Positions 1 through 7,047 are shown, numbered from the stretch's first letter. The stretch is DNA of 64,000 nucleotides from an uncultured Gemmatimonadales bacterium (GCA_963730185.1 CAVSQW010000006.1:32001-96000), one strand, 5' to 3'. Program-made: numbers and translations. Notes: generated from the letters alone by a model not told the origin.

Positions 1-470
1 AGCATCGCGCCGTTCACGCCGGACGGATCGGGCACCGGGAAGCCCGCCGGCGGGCCGCCGCCGTAGAGCACCAGGGCGGCCACCCGATCGGGCCAGGCCG
101 CCGCGAACCGCATCGCGACGCCCGCGCCGGCCGAGTGCCCGACCAGCACCGCGCGCCGGATGCCGAGGGTGTCGAGCAGCGCCAGGATGTCGCCCGGGTC
201 GGCGCTCGGGTCCGCGAACCCGGTCGACTTGCCGTAGCCCCGCCGGTCCAGCGCGATGACCCGGTAGTGGGCCGAGAGGTCCCGGACCTGGTCGTCCCAC
301 TCCCGGAGGCTCAGGGCCCAGCCGTGGATCAGCACCACGGCCGGCCCGCTGCCCGCCACCACGTAGTTGATCCGGGCGTCACCCCGATCGAGCGTCCTCG
401 GCTGCGCGGCCGCCGGCGCGGTCGCGATCATCAAGCCCAGGCCCGTCACCCACAGAGAAACAAGACGCAT
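1..470 (-). CDS. Secreted alpha/beta hydrolase (3' end outside window)
   Basis: Manual translation from ATG at 470: MRLVSLWVTGLGLMIATAPAAAQ signal peptide, VVLIHGW, nucleophile elbow VGHSAG, PDRVAALVL. Confidence 0.85.
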   Translation of the reverse strand, partial: MRLVSLWVTGLGLMIATAPAAAQPRTLDRGDARINYVVAGSGPAVVLIHGWALSLREWDDQVRDLSAHYRVIALDRRGYGKSTGFADPSADPGDILALLDTLGIRRAVLVGHSAGAGVAMRFAAAWPDRVAALVLYGGGPPAGFPVPDPSGVNGAM

Positions 471-567
471 TCGGCACCCCCTGGTCCGACGGGCCAGCAC
501 CGGCCCGTCTTCGGTAGGTTCGGCCCCGGCGCCCCGATCGGCAACCCCACCCGTCCCGCCCCTCGCA

Positions 568-595
568 TTGACACCCGGGCCCGCTGGGGCAGATT
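568..595 (+). promoter_or_regulatory. Putative sigma70-type promoter of the DUF2169 operon
   Basis: Exact TTGACA at 568-573, CAGATT 16 bp later; hairpin CTCTGACG(599-606)/CGTCAGAG(620-627) follows. Confidence 0.45.
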
Positions 596-719
596 CCGCT
601 CTGACGCCTCGCCTCCTTCCGTCAGAGGCGCCTCGCGCGCCCGTCCGATACCACCACCCGGGATGAGGGGCCATCCGTCCGGATGTCGCTCTCCCAGACA
701 GGCAGCCTCAGGAGCCAGC

Positions 720-1127
720 ATGACAGTACGCCCGGCCTACGACACCCGCACCCACGGGCCGACCTCGATCTCGGAGCCGGTCGAGATCGTCCGGCCCGCC
801 CTCCAGGGCATCGATGCCCGGCTCGACCTCCCGTCCGGCCGCACCATCGAGTGCGCCGACGCCGAGGCCGGGGGCGAGCTGGTCACGATCCGGAGCCCCG
901 GCGGTCAAGTGGAGTTGGAGATCCGGCTCACCGACCGGGGCCCGGTGCTCCGCTTCGAGGCCGCCAGCCTCGACCTCGAGGCCGCGGGCCGGATCCGGAC
1001 CCGCTGCAAGTCCTTCGAGGTGGTGGCCGAGGACGCCGCGATCACCGCCACCCGGGGCGACGTCCAGCTCCGGGCCAACGACGACGTCCGACTCAACGGG
1101 GAGCGCGTCAAGCTGAACTGCAGCTGA
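720..1127 (+). CDS. Small VgrG/gp5 C-terminal beta-helix-like protein (DUF6484-like)
   Basis: AGGAG then ATG at 720; 135 aa of short alternating beta strands ending GDVQLRANDDVRLNGERVKLN, resembling spike tips; directly upstream of DUF2169 genes. Confidence 0.55.
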   Translation: MTVRPAYDTRTHGPTSISEPVEIVRPALQGIDARLDLPSGRTIECADAEAGGELVTIRSPGGQVELEIRLTDRGPVLRFEAASLDLEAAGRIRTRCKSFEVVAEDAAITATRGDVQLRANDDVRLNGERVKLNCS

Positions 1128-1142
1128 GACGCGAGACGAGCC

Positions 1143-2201
1143 ATCGAATTCCAGAACACCGTCCCCTTCGGGGCCCGCTTCCTCAATACCGTCTTCGGCG
1201 AAGACCGCTCGCTCGGCACCGTGATCGCCCGGCCGTGCTTCCGGATCGAGGACGACCGGCTGGCATTCGACGCCGAGACCGAGATGCCGATCGAGGCCGC
1301 CCCGATGGCGACGCCGTTCGGCAATCTCCCGGCCGACACGCCGTTCGTCTCGGGCGGGGTCGACGTCTTCGTGATCGGGCAGGCCCGCCCGCCGCTGGGC
1401 AACCCCGCGTCGGAGCTCCGGGTCGACGTGAGCGTCGGGAGCTCGTTCCGGCGGTCCATCCGGGTGGTGGGCGACCGGGTCTGGCGGGCCAAGGCCTCGG
1501 CCGGCGGCAAGACCACCGCCGCCCTGCTCGAGCCCACCCCGCCGGTGCCGTTCACGGCCATGCCGCTGACCTGGGACCGGGCCTTCGGCGGCAAGACCAA
1601 GATGGAAGACTACGAGTACTTCTTCCCGGCCAACCCCGAGGGCCGGGGCTTCTACGCCACGGCCGACGAGGCCCTGGGCAAGCCGCTGCCCAACCTGGAG
1701 GACCCCGAGGCGCCGATCAAGTCGGTCGAGGACCAGCCCGAGCCGGTCGGCACCGCGCCCTACCCCCAGGCCGGCTCTCTCAAGTCGCTCGCCGCGCTCG
1801 ACCTGAAGGTCGACCAGGCCAATTCCGAGAACACCCGGATCGAGCGGATCAAGCCGCTCCTCTTCAACTCGGCCTCGCCCCGGATGATCGTCCCGCCGGC
1901 CCAGAGCCCCAAACCCGGCGAGCTGGTCGAGGTGACCAACGTCCGGACCTCGGGCCCGATCCGGTTCACGATGCCCGACCTGGCCATGCACGTCCACGTC
2001 CAGCTCGAGAACCGGCAGTACGTCTTCCCGCTCCACCTCGACCAGATCGGCATTCTGGCCGAGGAGCGCCGGGTGTTCCTCTCGTTCAGGGTGGCGTTCA
2101 AGTATCGGATCGTGGCCCGCGAGCGCCGCCGGGCCACCCTCCGGCGGGGTCCGGCGCCGGCGGAGATCCCGGCCGACTACACCATCGGCTGGGGGACCTG
2201 A
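1143..2201 (+). CDS. DUF2169 family T6SS accessory/chaperone protein (copy 1)
   Basis: DVFVIGQA, IRVVGDRVW, PFTAMPLTWDRAFGG, NPEGRGF, LPNLEDP, LFNSA motifs; family-like N-terminus EFQNTVPF begins at ATC 1143, upstream of the track's GTG at 1221. Confidence 0.85.
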   Translation: MEFQNTVPFGARFLNTVFGEDRSLGTVIARPCFRIEDDRLAFDAETEMPIEAAPMATPFGNLPADTPFVSGGVDVFVIGQARPPLGNPASELRVDVSVGSSFRRSIRVVGDRVWRAKASAGGKTTAALLEPTPPVPFTAMPLTWDRAFGGKTKMEDYEYFFPANPEGRGFYATADEALGKPLPNLEDPEAPIKSVEDQPEPVGTAPYPQAGSLKSLAALDLKVDQANSENTRIERIKPLLFNSASPRMIVPPAQSPKPGELVEVTNVRTSGPIRFTMPDLAMHVHVQLENRQYVFPLHLDQIGILAEERRVFLSFRVAFKYRIVARERRRATLRRGPAPAEIPADYTIGWGT

Positions 2202-2203
2202 CC

Positions 2204-3469
2204 GTGACCGATCCCGCCACCGGCCCGTCCGGCTTCCCCGCCCCGCCGACCGAGCTGCCCCCGGAGCTCGGCCAGTTCGAGACCGAGCCGTCCACCCAGG
2301 AGATCATCGACGGCAAGCCCGGGGGGGTGCCCATGGTGGCCCTGGTGCTCAAGCGCACCTACCGGATCGGGTCGCGCGGGGGCTGGGAGCCCGTGGCCGA
2401 CGACGACCAGGAGGTGGTGGTCGAGGACGAGATCCCGTACGAGGAGGCCGAGCCGCCCTTCGTCTCCCCGATCTTCCACAGCGACGACACCCTCTTCCGG
2501 CCCCGGACCGACGTCGTGGTGCAGGGCTCGGCCTGGGCCCCCGGGTCGCCGGCCCAGCGGCTGACCGTCCGGTTCCGGATGGGCGACCTCAAGCGCGACA
2601 TCCTGGTGTCCGGTGCCCGGAACGTGGAGCGCGGATCGGCCCGCGAGCTCCGGTTCACCGAGCCCGAGCCGTTCGAGTCCATCCCGCTCCGCTACGACCG
2701 GGCCTACGGCGGGGTGGACCTCCGGGCCTGGATGCTGACCCGGACGCCCCTGGAGGCCGATCTCCAGCGGGTCATGCCCGGCCTGCCGCTGGCCTCGTCG
2801 TCGCCCTACCACTACCCTCGTAACCCGGCCGGAATGGGCTTCCTGATCGAGGCCGCGCCCTACGACCTGGCCGACCTCCTGGTGCCCCACCTGGAGTACG
2901 AGCACGACCCGGTCACCGCCGACCGGCTGGCGGTGGGTAGCCCGGACCGCTGGACCAGCGCGCCGCTCCCGGCCGGGATGGACTGGCAGGGCTGCGACTG
3001 GTTCCCCCGGAAGGGCTACCTCGGCCTCCACGGGCTCCCGGCCGACTTCGCGGGGCGGGTGGCCGAGCGCGACCTGGGCTGGGCGCCGGCCGACCTGCTC
3101 CAGACCGGGTCGATGCTTCAGGGCCACCAGCCCCGGGCCGAATACGGACAGGGCGCCTCGGCGGGCATGGTCACCGACCTCTCGCTCGAAACGATCCGGG
3201 CCGGCATCCCGGTCAAGCTGGTCCACCTCCACCCCGAGCGGCCCGAGCTCACCATGGAGCTCCCCCGCGACTGGCCGGTGGCCAAGCTGGGACTCGGCGG
3301 TCCCTCGATGACCGACCTGACCCCGAAGCTGAGCGCCGTCGTGATCCGCCCGGACGACTTGGAGGTGGTGATGGTCTGGTGCGCCGAGACCAGGCGGTCC
3401 AGGGAGTACACCCCGAAGCAGTACGCCGAGATGGCCACCGAGGTGGCCTGGCGGCGAGATCCGAGATAG
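2204..3469 (+). CDS. DUF2169 family T6SS accessory/chaperone protein (copy 2)
   Basis: GTG 2 nt after copy-1 stop; VLKRTYRI, RPRTDVVVQGSAWAP, PFESIPLRYDRAYGG, YPRNPAGMGF, WFPR, LSAVVIRPD..VVMVW. Confidence 0.85.
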   Translation: MTDPATGPSGFPAPPTELPPELGQFETEPSTQEIIDGKPGGVPMVALVLKRTYRIGSRGGWEPVADDDQEVVVEDEIPYEEAEPPFVSPIFHSDDTLFRPRTDVVVQGSAWAPGSPAQRLTVRFRMGDLKRDILVSGARNVERGSARELRFTEPEPFESIPLRYDRAYGGVDLRAWMLTRTPLEADLQRVMPGLPLASSSPYHYPRNPAGMGFLIEAAPYDLADLLVPHLEYEHDPVTADRLAVGSPDRWTSAPLPAGMDWQGCDWFPRKGYLGLHGLPADFAGRVAERDLGWAPADLLQTGSMLQGHQPRAEYGQGASAGMVTDLSLETIRAGIPVKLVHLHPERPELTMELPRDWPVAKLGLGGPSMTDLTPKLSAVVIRPDDLEVVMVWCAETRRSREYTPKQYAEMATEVAWRRDPR

Positions 3470-3478
3470 GAGGGCACG

Positions 3479-4489
3479 ATGGGCTGGCAAGCGCTCGCGC
3501 ATCTTCGTTGGCACCCCTTCATCGGGCTCTGCTGGCACGACGGCATCATCGCCGCCGTCCCGCCGATCCCGACCCCCAAGATGCCGCACATCACCTTCAA
3601 CGTGCTGAACGGCCTCTTCCTCGGCGCCCTGCCGTCGGATTCGCCGGCCGGCATGGTGCAGGGACCGGGCGGGATTCCCTTCATGGGCCGGACCAACGAC
3701 GCGGGGTTCATCACCCCCCACGTCTCGATTCCGCCCAACAATTTCCTGCTCCCGCTCACCATTCTCTTCGGCAGCTCGGAGTCGATGCTGGGGTCGTCCA
3801 AGGTCAAGATCCAGTGCACCAACCTGATCTTCGGGGCGGACGAGTACGACATTTCGGCCTGCACCATCCCGGTCATTCCGCTGAGCACCAACTTCGGGTG
3901 CAACGACCCGCTGTTCGTGCCGCTCGACATGGTGATCTCGCCGAACACCGTGGTGGTCGAGATCACCCTGGTCGACCTGCTGAAGATGCTGGTCGACCTG
4001 ATCATCGCCGCCCTGATCGAGGGGCTGATGATGCTGGGCGGGGCGGCCCTCAAGAAGGTCTTCAAGAAGGTCAAGGCCAAGCGCTCCGCCTCGAAGCTCG
4101 CCAAGGCGTCGGGGGCGGGCGACGATGCCTACAAGGCCGCCTACAAGCACGCCGACGACGTCGACGTCGACCACGCCTTCAAGGAAGGGCTCCGGAAGCA
4201 GCGGGCCAAGGCGACCGGTGCCCCGATCCCGCCCCCCAAGCCGAACTTCAAGGCCCGGAAGGAGGCCAAGAAGGCGGGCGACGAAGCGTTCAACAAGGAG
4301 TTCCGGAAGCAGTTCCCACCGGCGAAGCCGGGCCCGGACCTCGGCGACAAGGTCGACCACGTTTTGCAGATCGGGCGGATCGGGGCGGCCCTTCGCCACA
4401 CCGCCAAGGAAGTCGTCAGCAACGTGATCGAGGGAGCGCTGGGACACGCCGCGCCCGGCGCCAACGACATCCTGGACGTCAAGAAGTAG
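3479..4489 (+). CDS. PAAR-like domain protein with hydrophobic helix and Lys-rich C-terminus; candidate T6SS tip/effector
   Basis: GGAGG RBS; HPFIGLCWH..PPIPTPKMPH, NDAGFITPH, GSSKV, GCNDP, NTVVV pattern as in PAAR-like N-termini; hydrophobic LVDLIIAALIEGLMMLGG; follows DUF2169 genes. Confidence 0.6.
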   Translation: MGWQALAHLRWHPFIGLCWHDGIIAAVPPIPTPKMPHITFNVLNGLFLGALPSDSPAGMVQGPGGIPFMGRTNDAGFITPHVSIPPNNFLLPLTILFGSSESMLGSSKVKIQCTNLIFGADEYDISACTIPVIPLSTNFGCNDPLFVPLDMVISPNTVVVEITLVDLLKMLVDLIIAALIEGLMMLGGAALKKVFKKVKAKRSASKLAKASGAGDDAYKAAYKHADDVDVDHAFKEGLRKQRAKATGAPIPPPKPNFKARKEAKKAGDEAFNKEFRKQFPPAKPGPDLGDKVDHVLQIGRIGAALRHTAKEVVSNVIEGALGHAAPGANDILDVKK

Positions 4490-4521
4490 CGGCGCCCGAC
4501 CGGCGCCCCTGGAGGCCGACA

Positions 4522-4731
4522 ATGGACAGCGAGACCTTCGACCAGCTCCCCAAGCGCGAGCAGCTTGGCATCGCCCTGAACCTGGCGGCCAGCGTCTTCG
4601 GCAAGGAGCGGGTCAAGCGCCACTACCAGCACATCGCCCCGCTGGTCGAGGACCGGGTCGGCCACGGCGCGGTCGCCGACCCGGCCCAGAACTACTGGGG
4701 CGGGGTGTGGCAGGTTTACAATGCGGACTGA
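4522..4731 (+). CDS. Small hypothetical protein (69 aa), candidate immunity/partner
   Basis: GGAGG 6 nt before ATG 4522; MDSETFDQLPKREQLG...YWGGVWQVYNAD; host-like GC3. Confidence 0.65.
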   Translation: MDSETFDQLPKREQLGIALNLAASVFGKERVKRHYQHIAPLVEDRVGHGAVADPAQNYWGGVWQVYNAD

Positions 4732-4749
4732 CCCGCACCCGGAGACTTG

Positions 4750-5715
4750 ATGCCCGGCTCGTCCGGTCCCGACCCTCTCGCCACGATTCGCGAGCGCGCC
4801 CCCGACCACCGGGTGTTCGGGGAGCTCGGCCGCACCAGCGACGACGACGTCTGGTACCTGGCCCGGAAAGAGGGTGAGGATCCGCTGGTCGCCCTCCGGC
4901 TCTCCCGGGCCGGGGTGGACGAGTGGGGCGATCCCCGCTACGAGCTCGCCGTCGCCAACGAGCTGGGGAGCGACGTCCCCACCGATCAGGGGAACTGCGT
5001 CGCCTGCGGCGCCCCGCTCCGGAGCTTCGCCCGGTTCTGCACCCGCTGTGGCGCCGACCAGAGCAAGGGGATGCGCGAAGGGGGCTCGGACGACGAGCGG
5101 AAGGTCCTCCTCGCCGAGGTCCGGGCCGCCGCCGCCGAGGTGTACGACGTGCTGGGCGAGATGCCGCAGGCCGACGGCGGCGGGACCGTCTACTTCGCCC
5201 TCGAGCGGCAGTCCGGCGAGCTGGTCCGGCTCCGGCTCCGCGAGGGCAACGAGGGGATGGAGCTCCACGAGACGGCCGTCGCGATGCATCTGGACCAGCT
5301 GGTGACGGCCACCCGGATTCGCTCCGGCGCCTTCCCCCGCCCCAGCGTCCGGATCTCGCCACCCCTCGGCGTCACGGCCCCGCCGCCGACCGCGCCCGAG
5401 CCGGCGGCTCCCGAGCCGGGGCCCCTGCCCCCCGAGGCGGCCGCGCCTCCGCCCGAGCCGGTGAGCCCACCGAGCCCGGTTCAGCCCGCCCCCCGCCCGA
5501 GCGCCCCGCGGCCCGTCCTGCCCGATCCCGGTCCGGCCCGGCCGTCCGGCCGACCCGCTCCGCCGCTCTTCGCACCGACCAACGAGCACGTGTCGCCCCG
5601 GGTCGCGTCGCGGCAGGCACCCCGGGCGTCCGACCGCGAGCGCCAGCTCCTCTGGGCCGTGGTGGTTCTGGCGGCCATCGTCCTGATCGAGACCACCCTG
5701 CTCCTGGTTCGCTGA
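4750..5715 (+). CDS. Double zinc-ribbon protein with two kinase-N-lobe-like repeats, Pro-rich linker and C-terminal membrane anchor
   Basis: CVAC..CTRC; repeats RVFGELGR..VWYLARK..LVALRL and YDVLGEMP..GTVYFALE..LVRLRL; terminal LLWAVVVLAAIVLIETTLLLV. Confidence 0.65.
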   Translation: MPGSSGPDPLATIRERAPDHRVFGELGRTSDDDVWYLARKEGEDPLVALRLSRAGVDEWGDPRYELAVANELGSDVPTDQGNCVACGAPLRSFARFCTRCGADQSKGMREGGSDDERKVLLAEVRAAAAEVYDVLGEMPQADGGGTVYFALERQSGELVRLRLREGNEGMELHETAVAMHLDQLVTATRIRSGAFPRPSVRISPPLGVTAPPPTAPEPAAPEPGPLPPEAAAPPPEPVSPPSPVQPAPRPSAPRPVLPDPGPARPSGRPAPPLFAPTNEHVSPRVASRQAPRASDRERQLLWAVVVLAAIVLIETTLLLVR

Positions 5716-5758
5716 CCCGACCGCTTCGTTCGCGGGGGGCCGGTCCACTCGCGGGGCG

Positions 5759-5784
5759 GGAACTTGCCCCGGGCCTCGGCCGTA
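5759..5784 (+). promoter_or_regulatory. Putative ECF-sigma promoter
   Basis: GGAACT-N16-CGTA about 70 bp upstream of ATG 5857. Confidence 0.4.
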
Positions 5785-5856
5785 CGAGTAGGGGGACGCT
5801 CGTCCGACTCGCGACCCGCCCCCTCGCCCCAGCCCGATCGCTCTCTCGAGGACGCC

Positions 5857-7047
5857 ATGCCCGAGCGCCGTGATTTCCTTCGCGTCTCCCTCGCTACCGG
5901 CGGGTTGATGATCTTCGGCCGCCGCCCCCTTGACGCCCTCGGCGCTCCGGCCAACCCACCGGCGCGGATCCCCGTGATCCCCTCGGCCCCGCGCTCGCTC
6001 AACCTCCTGATCCTGGGCGGCACCGGCCTCACCGGCCCCCACCAGGTGAGCTACGCCCTGGCCCGGGGCCACCAGGTCACCGTGTTCAACCGCGGCCGCC
6101 GGAACGACCGGCTGCCGGCCGGCGTGAGGGAGCTCAAGGGCGACCGGAACCTCCACCAGGTCGAGGCCCTCAAGGGCCAGGACTGGGACGTCGTGATCGA
6201 CAACCCCACCACCCTGCCCTTCTGGGTCAAGGACGCCGCCGAGGTGCTGAAGGACCATACCGGCCAGTACGTCTTCATCTCCACCATCTCGGTCTACGAT
6301 CCGGCCGGGCAGAGCTCGATCACGGAGACCTCGCCGCAGGTCGAGCTCAAGGCGTCCGACGGCGACCCGATGGCCATCACCATGGAGCAGTTCGGGAAGA
6401 ACCTCGAGTATCTCTACGGCCGGCTCAAGACGGCCTCGGAGCGCGAGGCGACCAAGTGGTACGGCGACCGGACCACGATCATCCGCCCCGGGCTCATCGT
6501 CGGCCCGGGCGACGGGTCGTTCCGGTTTACGTACTGGCCCTGGCGGATCGAGCAGGGCGGCGAGATCCTCGCTCCCGGCGACGGGAGCGACTCGATCCAG
6601 ATCATCGACGCCCGCGATCTGGCCGAGTGGACCATCCGGATGGTCGAGAACCACACCACCGGCACCTTCAACGGCACCGGCCCCCGGGCCCCGATGACCA
6701 TGGCCGAGCAGCTCTACGGCATCCGGGGCGCGTTCGACGGCAACAAGGATCTGCGCTTCACCTGGGTGCCGTCGGACTTCCTGGCCGAGCAGAAGGTCAC
6801 GCCCTGGGGGGAAATGCCGACCTGGATCCCCAAGTCGGACCCCGAGCATGTGATCTCGAAGACCGACGTGTCCCGAGCCATCGCCGCCGGCCTGACGTTC
6901 CGACCCCTGGCCACCAGCGCGGTGGATGCGCTGGACTGGTTCCGGAAGCTGCCCGAGAACGTGCGGGAGCAGGTGAGGAAGAATGCCGGCATCGCGGAGG
7001 AGAAGGAGAAGGCCGTCCTGGCGGCCTGGCACGTGAAGGCCGGCTGA
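5857..7047 (+). CDS. Tat-exported NAD-dependent epimerase/dehydratase family protein
   Basis: ERRDFLR twin-arginine signal; LILGGTGLTG Rossmann motif; ISTISVY; YGRLK (YxxxK); RPGLIVGP. Confidence 0.9.
   Translation: MPERRDFLRVSLATGGLMIFGRRPLDALGAPANPPARIPVIPSAPRSLNLLILGGTGLTGPHQVSYALARGHQVTVFNRGRRNDRLPAGVRELKGDRNLHQVEALKGQDWDVVIDNPTTLPFWVKDAAEVLKDHTGQYVFISTISVYDPAGQSSITETSPQVELKASDGDPMAITMEQFGKNLEYLYGRLKTASEREATKWYGDRTTIIRPGLIVGPGDGSFRFTYWPWRIEQGGEILAPGDGSDSIQIIDARDLAEWTIRMVENHTTGTFNGTGPRAPMTMAEQLYGIRGAFDGNKDLRFTWVPSDFLAEQKVTPWGEMPTWIPKSDPEHVISKTDVSRAIAAGLTFRPLATSAVDALDWFRKLPENVREQVRKNAGIAEEKEKAVLAAWHVKAG

Follow-up and report, generated by a model that had tools for sequence, protein, structure and literature searches.

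Near the left end of a 64,000-nucleotide stretch of DNA from an uncultured Gemmatimonadales bacterium (GCA_963730185.1) lies an operon of six genes, g1 to g6, that is considered here as a putative kit for loading a spike tip onto a type VI secretion system (T6SS). The stretch, called the window throughout, corresponds to C6:32001-96000 of a genome assembly (G000) of 5.27 Mb in 17 contigs that is 82% complete. All six genes lie on the + strand between positions 720 and 5715, with intergenic gaps of 2-32 nt, and their GC content at third codon positions (GC3) of 0.92-0.96 is host-like. An earlier reading of the window from its sequence alone (the sequence-only reading) had described six tightly packed, co-oriented genes in a probable Gemmatimonadota host, and both points are borne out, the closest named relatives being Gemmatimonadales.

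Genes of the cassette

The first gene, g1 (720-1127, + strand), encodes a 135-aa protein that corresponds to the beta-prism of VgrG only. A profile of 42 g1 homologues matches residues 454-583 of the VgrG in PDB 8gra_I (E 4.6e-8) and covers only the part of VgrG that follows the OB fold, and g1 also matches the genome's own VgrG, by tblastn (E 1.6e-5) and by hhalign (83%). Neither g1 nor 8 of its homologues matched DUF6484 (PF20093), PF04717 or an OB fold; DUF3540 was not matched by g1 and gave weak matches below the cut-off in g1 homologues (E 0.003-0.04), and DUF2345 matched g1 at E 0.026. The C-terminus is conserved (DVRLNGERVKLNC) and ends G-x-x-V-K-x-N, as do VgrGs encoded beside related modules in other loci. 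A phylum-wide search of 400 genomes gave no further clear g1: the match in G005 is the VgrG of that genome, and three weak matches remain.

The tandem DUF2169 genes of the sequence-only reading were confirmed, as both g2 (1143-2201, + strand, 352 aa) and g3 (2204-3469, + strand, 421 aa) match PF09937 over the cut-off (E 1.3e-48 and 6.4e-42) and are the sole two DUF2169 genes of the genome. The product of g2 is a TvpA-like chaperone of a type designated A, and that of g3, designated type B, belongs to a separate paralogue family with insertions. In a tree of 43 DUF2169 proteins, made by quick search only, types A (support 96) and B (support 100) each form one side of a branch, and 7 single-copy DUF2169 proteins fall apart from both. 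This split implies that the pair is an old, fixed partnership and not a local duplication, and types A and B appear to be two anciently diverged paralogues. The homologues of g3 number 192 at E<=1e-20, among them ones from Sorangium and Stieleria, and g3 matches the DUF2169 crystal chain 8vth_A (E 0.003); a PDB sequence search with g2 gave nothing significant, and a plasmid search recovered only distant DUF2169 proteins. None of the six proteins has a Pfam match to a pentapeptide repeat or a match in Pfam or NCBIfam to TvpD (PRK06147, thiolase-like), whose slot is held by DUF2169-B.

No ATG opens g2. Its conserved N-terminus (IEFQNT, aligned with MELxNxT) begins at an ATC at position 1143, which is the probable start, and the aligned codon is also ATC in two further genomes that carry the cassette, G010 (L024:9650) and G003 (L028:7555). 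The type A gene elsewhere starts with TTG (L039-L041) or ATG (L030-L034, L036, L038), and the ATC start of g2 may limit the level of the chaperone. DNA contigs from three runs cover pieces of the operon, and no contig extends over all of it. Stop read-through joining g1 to g2 was rejected, the two genes being in frame in the window and out of frame in G010 and G003.

The fourth gene, g4 (3479-4489, + strand), encodes a tip and a tail. The tip, residues 1-162 (3479-3964), is predicted to have the cone fold of PAAR proteins. AlphaFold2 modelled residues 1-190 from an alignment of 133 sequences with a predicted local distance difference test (pLDDT) score of 96 and a predicted template modelling (pTM) score of 0.88, an earlier full-length model from 10 sequences having reached a pLDDT of 39. 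When the model was compared with 48,161 chains by VIA-align, the six best matches were all PAAR-type tips (Z 8.2, 8.1, 7.7, 7.0, 6.2 and 5.7), led by 4jiw_D with a root-mean-square deviation of 2.5 A over 93 aligned residues, and the next, unrelated match stood at Z 2.7. Two results weigh against this assignment: the top Z score, 8.2, is close to the background stated for the tool, and Foldseek of the tip on the PDB returned no match at E<=0.001. The case for a PAAR fold is therefore built on the uniform identity of the matches. At the sequence level, g4 profiles found nothing significant in the PDB, and PAAR (PF05488) and DUF4150 (PF13665) were matched neither by g4 nor by 90 scanned homologues, which had no DUF4280 match either, PF13665 being without a match anywhere in G000. 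Alignment to one DUF4150-type protein by hhalign gave a probability of 0.5%, and the PAAR motif occurs in 1 of 132 homologues and the string P[IV]P[YF] in 15 of 132. The PAAR-like protein of the sequence-only reading thus stands as regards its predicted fold and falls as regards DUF4150 or PAAR family membership by Pfam.

The tip family has no Pfam model, and 425 representatives of it were recovered at E<=0.001 with a profile. The start of the tip, HPxIGxDxH, may resemble the N-termini of PAAR_4-type Rhs proteins. Across the 133 sequences H20 is conserved in 97%, H37 in 71%, H81 in 99% and C141 in 100%; the zinc of canonical PAAR proteins is bound by three His and a Cys. The four conserved residues suggest a metal site in the tip, a reasonable inference because a zinc site is present in PAARs and absent from DUF4150 proteins (PMC11883445). 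PAAR types A-H are set out in PMC8651086. In the Atlas the best matches of g4 are unnamed Myxococcota/Bacteroidota clusters (0.87-0.90), with PAAR, DUF4150, DUF4280 and prePAAR clusters at 0.76-0.81, all of which serve as leads only. Viral contigs held no g4 relative, and in a sample of 351 Planctomycetota genomes the tip occurred in 7, every time within the module described below.

Behind the cone lies a hydrophobic helix (residues ~162-188; Kyte-Doolittle 19-mer peak 2.27), and a peak above 1.6 follows the cone in 67 of 133 family members. Residues 163-336 (3965-4489, + strand) comprise this helix and a basic helical tail, which is a candidate effector portion; the net charge of the tail is +14, and no known toxin domain was found in it with Pfam. 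Tails of 129 family members split into 79 unlinked groups, which together with the helix is the pattern of a polymorphic carrier. Of the 90 scanned homologues, 7 (P0055, P0056, P0057, P0060, P0067, P0070, P0074) have immunoglobulin-like Big_12 domains at the C-terminus in place of a toxin-like tail, and the others are without a domain match. The tip domain is internal in P0062 and P0064.

The last two genes are g5 (4522-4731, + strand), for a soluble protein of 69 aa, and g6 (4747-5715, + strand), for a protein of 322 aa. The product of g5, which has no family match, may serve the g4 tail as immunity protein or adaptor. The gene is present in 3 of 61 genomes, and in all three it stands immediately after g4. 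The sequence-only reading had taken g6 for a membrane zinc-ribbon protein, and it does have a zinc ribbon (E 4.6e-5, just below the Pfam cut-off) and a C-terminal hydrophobic helix as membrane anchor, in addition to an internal repeat (E 0.006) and a Pro-rich linker. Its best Atlas match is an unnamed Gemmatimonadota cluster.

The expression signals and boundaries of the operon are less distinct. A promoter of its own with a TTGACA box had been proposed and was not substantiated: TTGACA is present at 568, the best -10 element (CAGATT, 590-595) fits at 3 of 6 positions, and a sigma-70 consensus scan of 1-7000 called no promoter. The hexamer occurs 241 times on both strands of the 5.27 Mb genome. 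A similar element, TTG-N17-CAAACT, lies at the aligned position in G010 and G003, whose upstream genes differ, and the aligned TTG-N16/17-CA.A.T element lends slight backing to a possible promoter, TTGACA-N16-CAGATT, at 568-595 (+ strand). The g1 leader contains an inverted repeat, CTCTGACG...CGTCAGAG (window 599-627), which has no Rfam match and is not conserved in G010 or G003. Rfam matched nothing in window 1-7000, and no tRNA was found within C6:10-70 kb. On the left the divergent hydrolase of the sequence-only reading is an alpha/beta hydrolase by family search; on the right the separate gene exists, a twin-arginine translocation (TAT)-signal epimerase, and the promoter proposed for it was not called. 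The contigs of runs X1 and X2 lack parts of the epimerase gene (window 5775-6467), so close relatives differ directly after g6. A conserved linkage of g6 and the epimerase was rejected, as the epimerase behind g6 in G011 matches C8 best (76%) and the window at only 42.5%.

The module in other bacteria

Both DUF2169 types are found together outside the genus at 18 distinct loci, several of them close kin. The loci surveyed came from a g1 scan of genomes (11) and a g4 scan of metagenomes (3), and from type A searches of 351 Planctomycetota genomes (9 matches) and 401 Bacteroidota genomes (7), with a type A profile built partly from the loci themselves. Dropped from the count were L120, L122 and L127-L129, which match the type A profile, have one DUF2169 each and form a group apart, and L037, which is cut after type A. 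G032 was rejected as a carrier, having a classical single DUF2169 with vgrG and no g1 or tip match. The hosts are Bacteroidota, Planctomycetota and another Gemmatimonadales genome, and the module accompanies a T6SS of subtype i (T6SSi) in L030 and one of subtype iii (T6SSiii) in L031.

The tip is present in 17 of the 18 loci (not in L124, and at only 39-45 bits in L125 and L126) and a g1-like gene in all 18, weak and downstream in L121 and L123. An adjacent vgrG is found in 13; L040, L041, L119 and L123 are cut upstream, and L118 is part of the core cluster of a T6SS, ~11 kb from a VgrG-type gene. The informative loci number 14, with vgrG adjacent in 13 of them, and the nearest vgrG-linked relatives are L030 and L039/L041. 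Because a g1-like gene stands with a full vgrG in 13 of these 14 loci, g1 is not a substitute for vgrG, and the claim that a 135-aa protein takes the place of vgrG is not supported. TvpC genes of published systems likewise accompany a vgrG (PMC13373197). The g1 product is instead likely a TvpC-like placeholder, presumably trimeric.

Several loci vary this arrangement. In L032, from Stieleria mannarensis, the module and a classical class II Tvp cluster form a tandem in which both have an hcp and a vgrG to themselves. At L125:3362-5264 and L126:3335-5221 a single A+B pair is followed by two highly diverged tip genes in tandem. In Bacteroidota a small membrane protein adjoins the tip or DUF2169-B (L031:11322-11753, L034:12143-12553, L038:11857-12330), in the slot of a possible immunity gene, and has a DUF3592 match in 2 of 3.

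A detached cassette and the T6SS of its host

Within the genus the cassette is detached from vgrG. As the sequence-only reading had stated, the window contains no vgrG, hcp or tss gene by tblastn with T6SSi seeds and the T6SS proteins of G000 itself (VgrG, TssB, C, E, F, K, Hcp and PAAR), the sole matches being g1, from VgrG residues 443-548, and g6; for Rhs genes, absent according to the same reading, no search aimed at them was made. The order g1-g6 without vgrG recurs, with different flanks, in G010 (L024) and in G003, where it is spread over two contigs (L028 and L025), so that 3 of 22 genus genomes have the orphan cassette. L028 was rejected as a fourth orphan, belonging to the same genome as L025.

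One explanation of this state is decay: the cassette would be the remnant of a vgrG locus that was acquired horizontally and has since lost its vgrG, with the ATC of g2 as an early lesion. Its rarity in the genus, the missing ATG and the absence of vgrG where relatives have it would fit such decay. There are, however, no stops or frameshifts in the three genomes, and the ratio of nonsynonymous to synonymous substitution rates (dN/dS) between G010 and G003, whose proteins are 91-99% identical, is 0.05-0.16 for all six genes (0.16 for g5). The ATC is common to lineages only 63% identical in g2, and the divergence of the cassette from G010 (51-63%) is comparable to that of VgrG and the T6SS accessory genes (54-68%), which suggests long co-inheritance. 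The orphan copy is thus under purifying selection in three genomes and, being intact as well, is not the broken fragment of a canonical vgrG locus that the sequence-only reading had named as its refutation. Set against this are a dN/dS of 0.43-0.84 between the window and G010, a range hard to read because a GC3 near 0.95 depresses synonymous distance, and the fact that the close kinship of G003 and G010 leaves only two independent lineages. On balance a decaying relic is very improbable.

All three cassette genomes have TssC and one detected VgrG. In G000 the single PF04717 match is the VgrG on contig C12, and six foreign VgrG seeds and a custom VgrG profile revealed no second one. The C12 cluster holds TssB, TssC (PF17541), VgrG, TssK, a TssF-like protein, a Clp ATPase, FHA, vWA and Sel1 proteins and kinases, and its core has the compact order tssB-C-hcp-E-vgrG-F-G-K-clpV, in which Hcp, TssE and TssG were assigned by position and reading without a Pfam match. 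Searches of G000 for PF05943, TssM (PF06744) and TssN (PF17555) found none. The PF17541 TssC occurs in 13 of 61 relatives, G000 included, and in 12 of the 22 genus genomes. The tip cassette for a machine elsewhere, suggested by the sequence-only reading as a possibility, is accordingly matched by a T6SS in the same genome.

This T6SSiii-like system spans G000:C12:302000-324800 (L004, L005) and is flanked by genes for vWA, polytopic membrane, FHA, Sel1 and kinase proteins. Between a kinase and the T6SS operon lies an open reading frame that reads as a pyridoxal phosphate (PLP)-decarboxylase-like gene (G000:C12:318900-320400; L005:8906-10400); the same slot is variable, holding PAAR/OmpA genes in G005 and apparently nothing in G010. 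A second auxiliary cluster near the T6SS (G000:C12:329700-341500, L007) has a canonical PAAR with a C-terminal extension, followed by two repeats of genes for peptidoglycan-binding and OmpA-domain proteins with open reading frames between them. The TssC matches of G011, G008 and G010 (L014, L015, L021) contain one TGA each and may run past the gene end.

The last gene of the cassette is itself linked to this T6SS. A g6 paralogue with 40% identity adjoins the T6SS on C12, and matches of g6 at E<1e-18, a threshold set afterwards in the gap between 1e-19 and 5e-13, occur in 14 of 61 genomes: 13 with TssC, and G032 with its classical vgrG cluster. Six genomes with weaker matches have no TssC, and kin among the genomes are not independent; six genomes have g6 but not g1-g5. 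The g6 orthologue of G008 and G011 comes immediately after a zinc-ribbon kinase whose best match in G000 flanks the T6SS; in G000, G003 and G010 g6 comes after g5 instead. From this distribution g6 belongs to an accessory module of the host T6SS, from which the cassette would have captured it or in which the cassette may once have sat.

A different possibility is a complex of the six proteins that stands alone, with g6 as its anchor, and serves no injection machine. It would account for a window free of T6SS genes, for a six-gene order kept in different genomic settings and for the attachment of g6 in 3 of 3 genomes. None of the 14 informative loci outside the genus is detached from T6SS genes, however, all three hosts have a T6SS, g6 is a T6SS accessory gene that occurs apart from g1-g5, and g1 has no hub from which a tube could start. 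An extracellular contractile injection system, also raised by the sequence-only reading, is likewise without support, the phage-type sheath PF04984 not being found in G000 at its 82% completeness. We regard a complex that acts alone as highly unlikely.

Proposed loading of the tip onto the resident spike

The operon is probably a detached Tvp-type loading kit for the host T6SS, and its tip is likely handed to the VgrG encoded on C12. In Serratia, TvpC is a mimic of VgrG, and its complex with a DUF2169 protein and the tip excludes the VgrG complex and is yet needed for it, the exchange of TvpC and VgrG having been demonstrated by experiment (PMC13373197). If the cassette is analogous to TvpC/TvpAB/Paar1 of Serratia, a trimer of g1 would stand in for VgrG for a time and template the tip; the g4 tip would be held or shielded on g1 by two different DUF2169 chaperones, A and B; and the tip would then pass to the single detected VgrG of C12. 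Such loading would take place in trans.

Several points weigh against this reading. Tvp clusters as published lie directly downstream of their own vgrG (PMC13373197). The resident VgrG has a PAAR of its own nearby, the canonical one ~18 kb from the C12 vgrG, and it ends GGMVHVQP with a ~35-residue extension, unlike the VgrGs beside the module, which end bluntly in G-x-x-V/I-K/T-x-N; resident VgrGs of the genus end GGMVxxQPPG plus an extension. Co-occurrence with a T6SS in 3 of 3 genomes would be expected by chance at ~14% by hand calculation, given TssC in 12 of 22 genus genomes, and the three cassette genomes are 82, 86 and 73% complete.

This incompleteness leaves room for a variant in which the kit works as described and its cognate VgrG is encoded by a second vgrG missing from the assemblies, so that the resident spike is not re-tipped. 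The difference between the resident VgrG end and the cognate ones would fit, and Tvp systems usually accompany an alternative, second VgrG. Against it, each of three separate assemblies shows one VgrG, and the foreign seeds and custom profile led only to C12 in G000; from the completeness values, three misses would have odds of ~0.7% by hand calculation if losses were independent. A missed second vgrG is therefore an unlikely explanation.

The mismatch of the VgrG end could also be solved if g1 were not exchanged but remained for good between the tip and the resident VgrG, as an adaptor or an extension of the spike, and were fired along with them, and g1 does lack the OB fold of known TvpC proteins. 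Yet g1 is kept even where a matching VgrG adjoins, its N-terminal half matches post-OB VgrG and not a PAAR-like docking face, and the TvpC and VgrG complexes of Serratia are mutually exclusive (PMC13373197), which makes a permanent adaptor quite improbable. Beyond the loading kit itself, it is conceivable, though somewhat doubtful, that g3 shields the hydrophobic helix behind the tip, that g4 has in its basic tail an effector acting on membranes, with g5 as its immunity protein, and that g6 ties the kit to the kinase/FHA control module of the machine.

Comparison with known systems

According to PMC11883445, DUF2169 goes with vgrG and DUF4150, one to one in >80% of genomes, with ~20% uncategorised, and according to PMC13373197 sequences from other phyla fit three Tvp classes. 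The module described here departs from this pattern in having two paralogues per tip, a tip that is not DUF4150 and a locus from which, in this genus, vgrG is missing. None of the three published classes accommodates it. It likely represents a fourth class of Tvp system with a new family of tips, here in an unusual form that lacks vgrG; if among the ~20% uncategorised DUF2169 genes, it could account for part of them. A literature search, outside which most subscription papers lay, found no description of a double-DUF2169 module or of a Gemmatimonadota T6SSiii-type system. More tentatively, this would be a portable class in which an OB-less mimic and a heterodimeric DUF2169 clamp pre-assemble an uncatalogued metal-binding tip for a non-cognate VgrG, with the ATC throttling chaperone supply. 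Were this so, it would explain how one module serves T6SSi and T6SSiii in at least three phyla and how a detached cassette re-tips the sole spike of an undescribed Gemmatimonadota T6SSiii-like machine. The polymorphic tip family, with at least 425 representatives, is one that effector searches based on Pfam miss. Whether the TvpC step serves the cognate VgrG only, or permits a tip swap onto another spike, is a testable question for which the 135-aa g1 mimic is a minimal substrate in reconstituting the hand-over.

With regard to the secretion machine, the C12 system resembles Bacteroidota T6SSiii in its TssC, which matches PF17541 and not PF05943, and in its compact gene order. It differs in that neither TssM nor TssN was found with it in G000 and in its occurrence in Gemmatimonadales, T6SSiii being restricted to Bacteroidota according to PMC4793230 and PMC13584744. 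The g4 tip shares a predicted cone fold and conserved His and Cys residues with canonical zinc-binding PAAR proteins (c1882 in 4JIW, T4 gp5.4, Pvc10), from which it is set apart by its 162 residues with long insertions and no PF05488 match. Genes of the g4 family always occur together with DUF2169 genes, whereas canonical PAARs need no help in binding VgrG (PMC11883445).

Among Tvp systems, class II (P. aeruginosa PA0095-PA0099 and V. parahaemolyticus; PMC13373197) equals synteny type A of PMC11883445. The module resembles it in that a short gene for a VgrG mimic is followed by a DUF2169 of one domain, a second gene for a co-chaperone and a PAAR-like tip extended at its C-terminus. Class II normally lies downstream of vgrG, which the locus lacks in this genus, and the module further differs in a mimic, g1, without DUF6484 or OB fold, a tip that is not DUF4150 and a second chaperone that is DUF2169-B rather than TvpD. 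Class III is represented by TvpAB, TvpB, TvpC and Paar1 of Serratia marcescens (PMC13373197). It is unlike the module, which has no pentapeptide-repeat proteins, no DUF3540 over the cut-off, a much shorter mimic and a non-DUF4150 tip; g1 homologues do show the weak, sub-cut-off DUF3540 matches, and class III, in which a TvpC pre-complex precedes loading onto VgrG, is the source of the mechanism proposed here.

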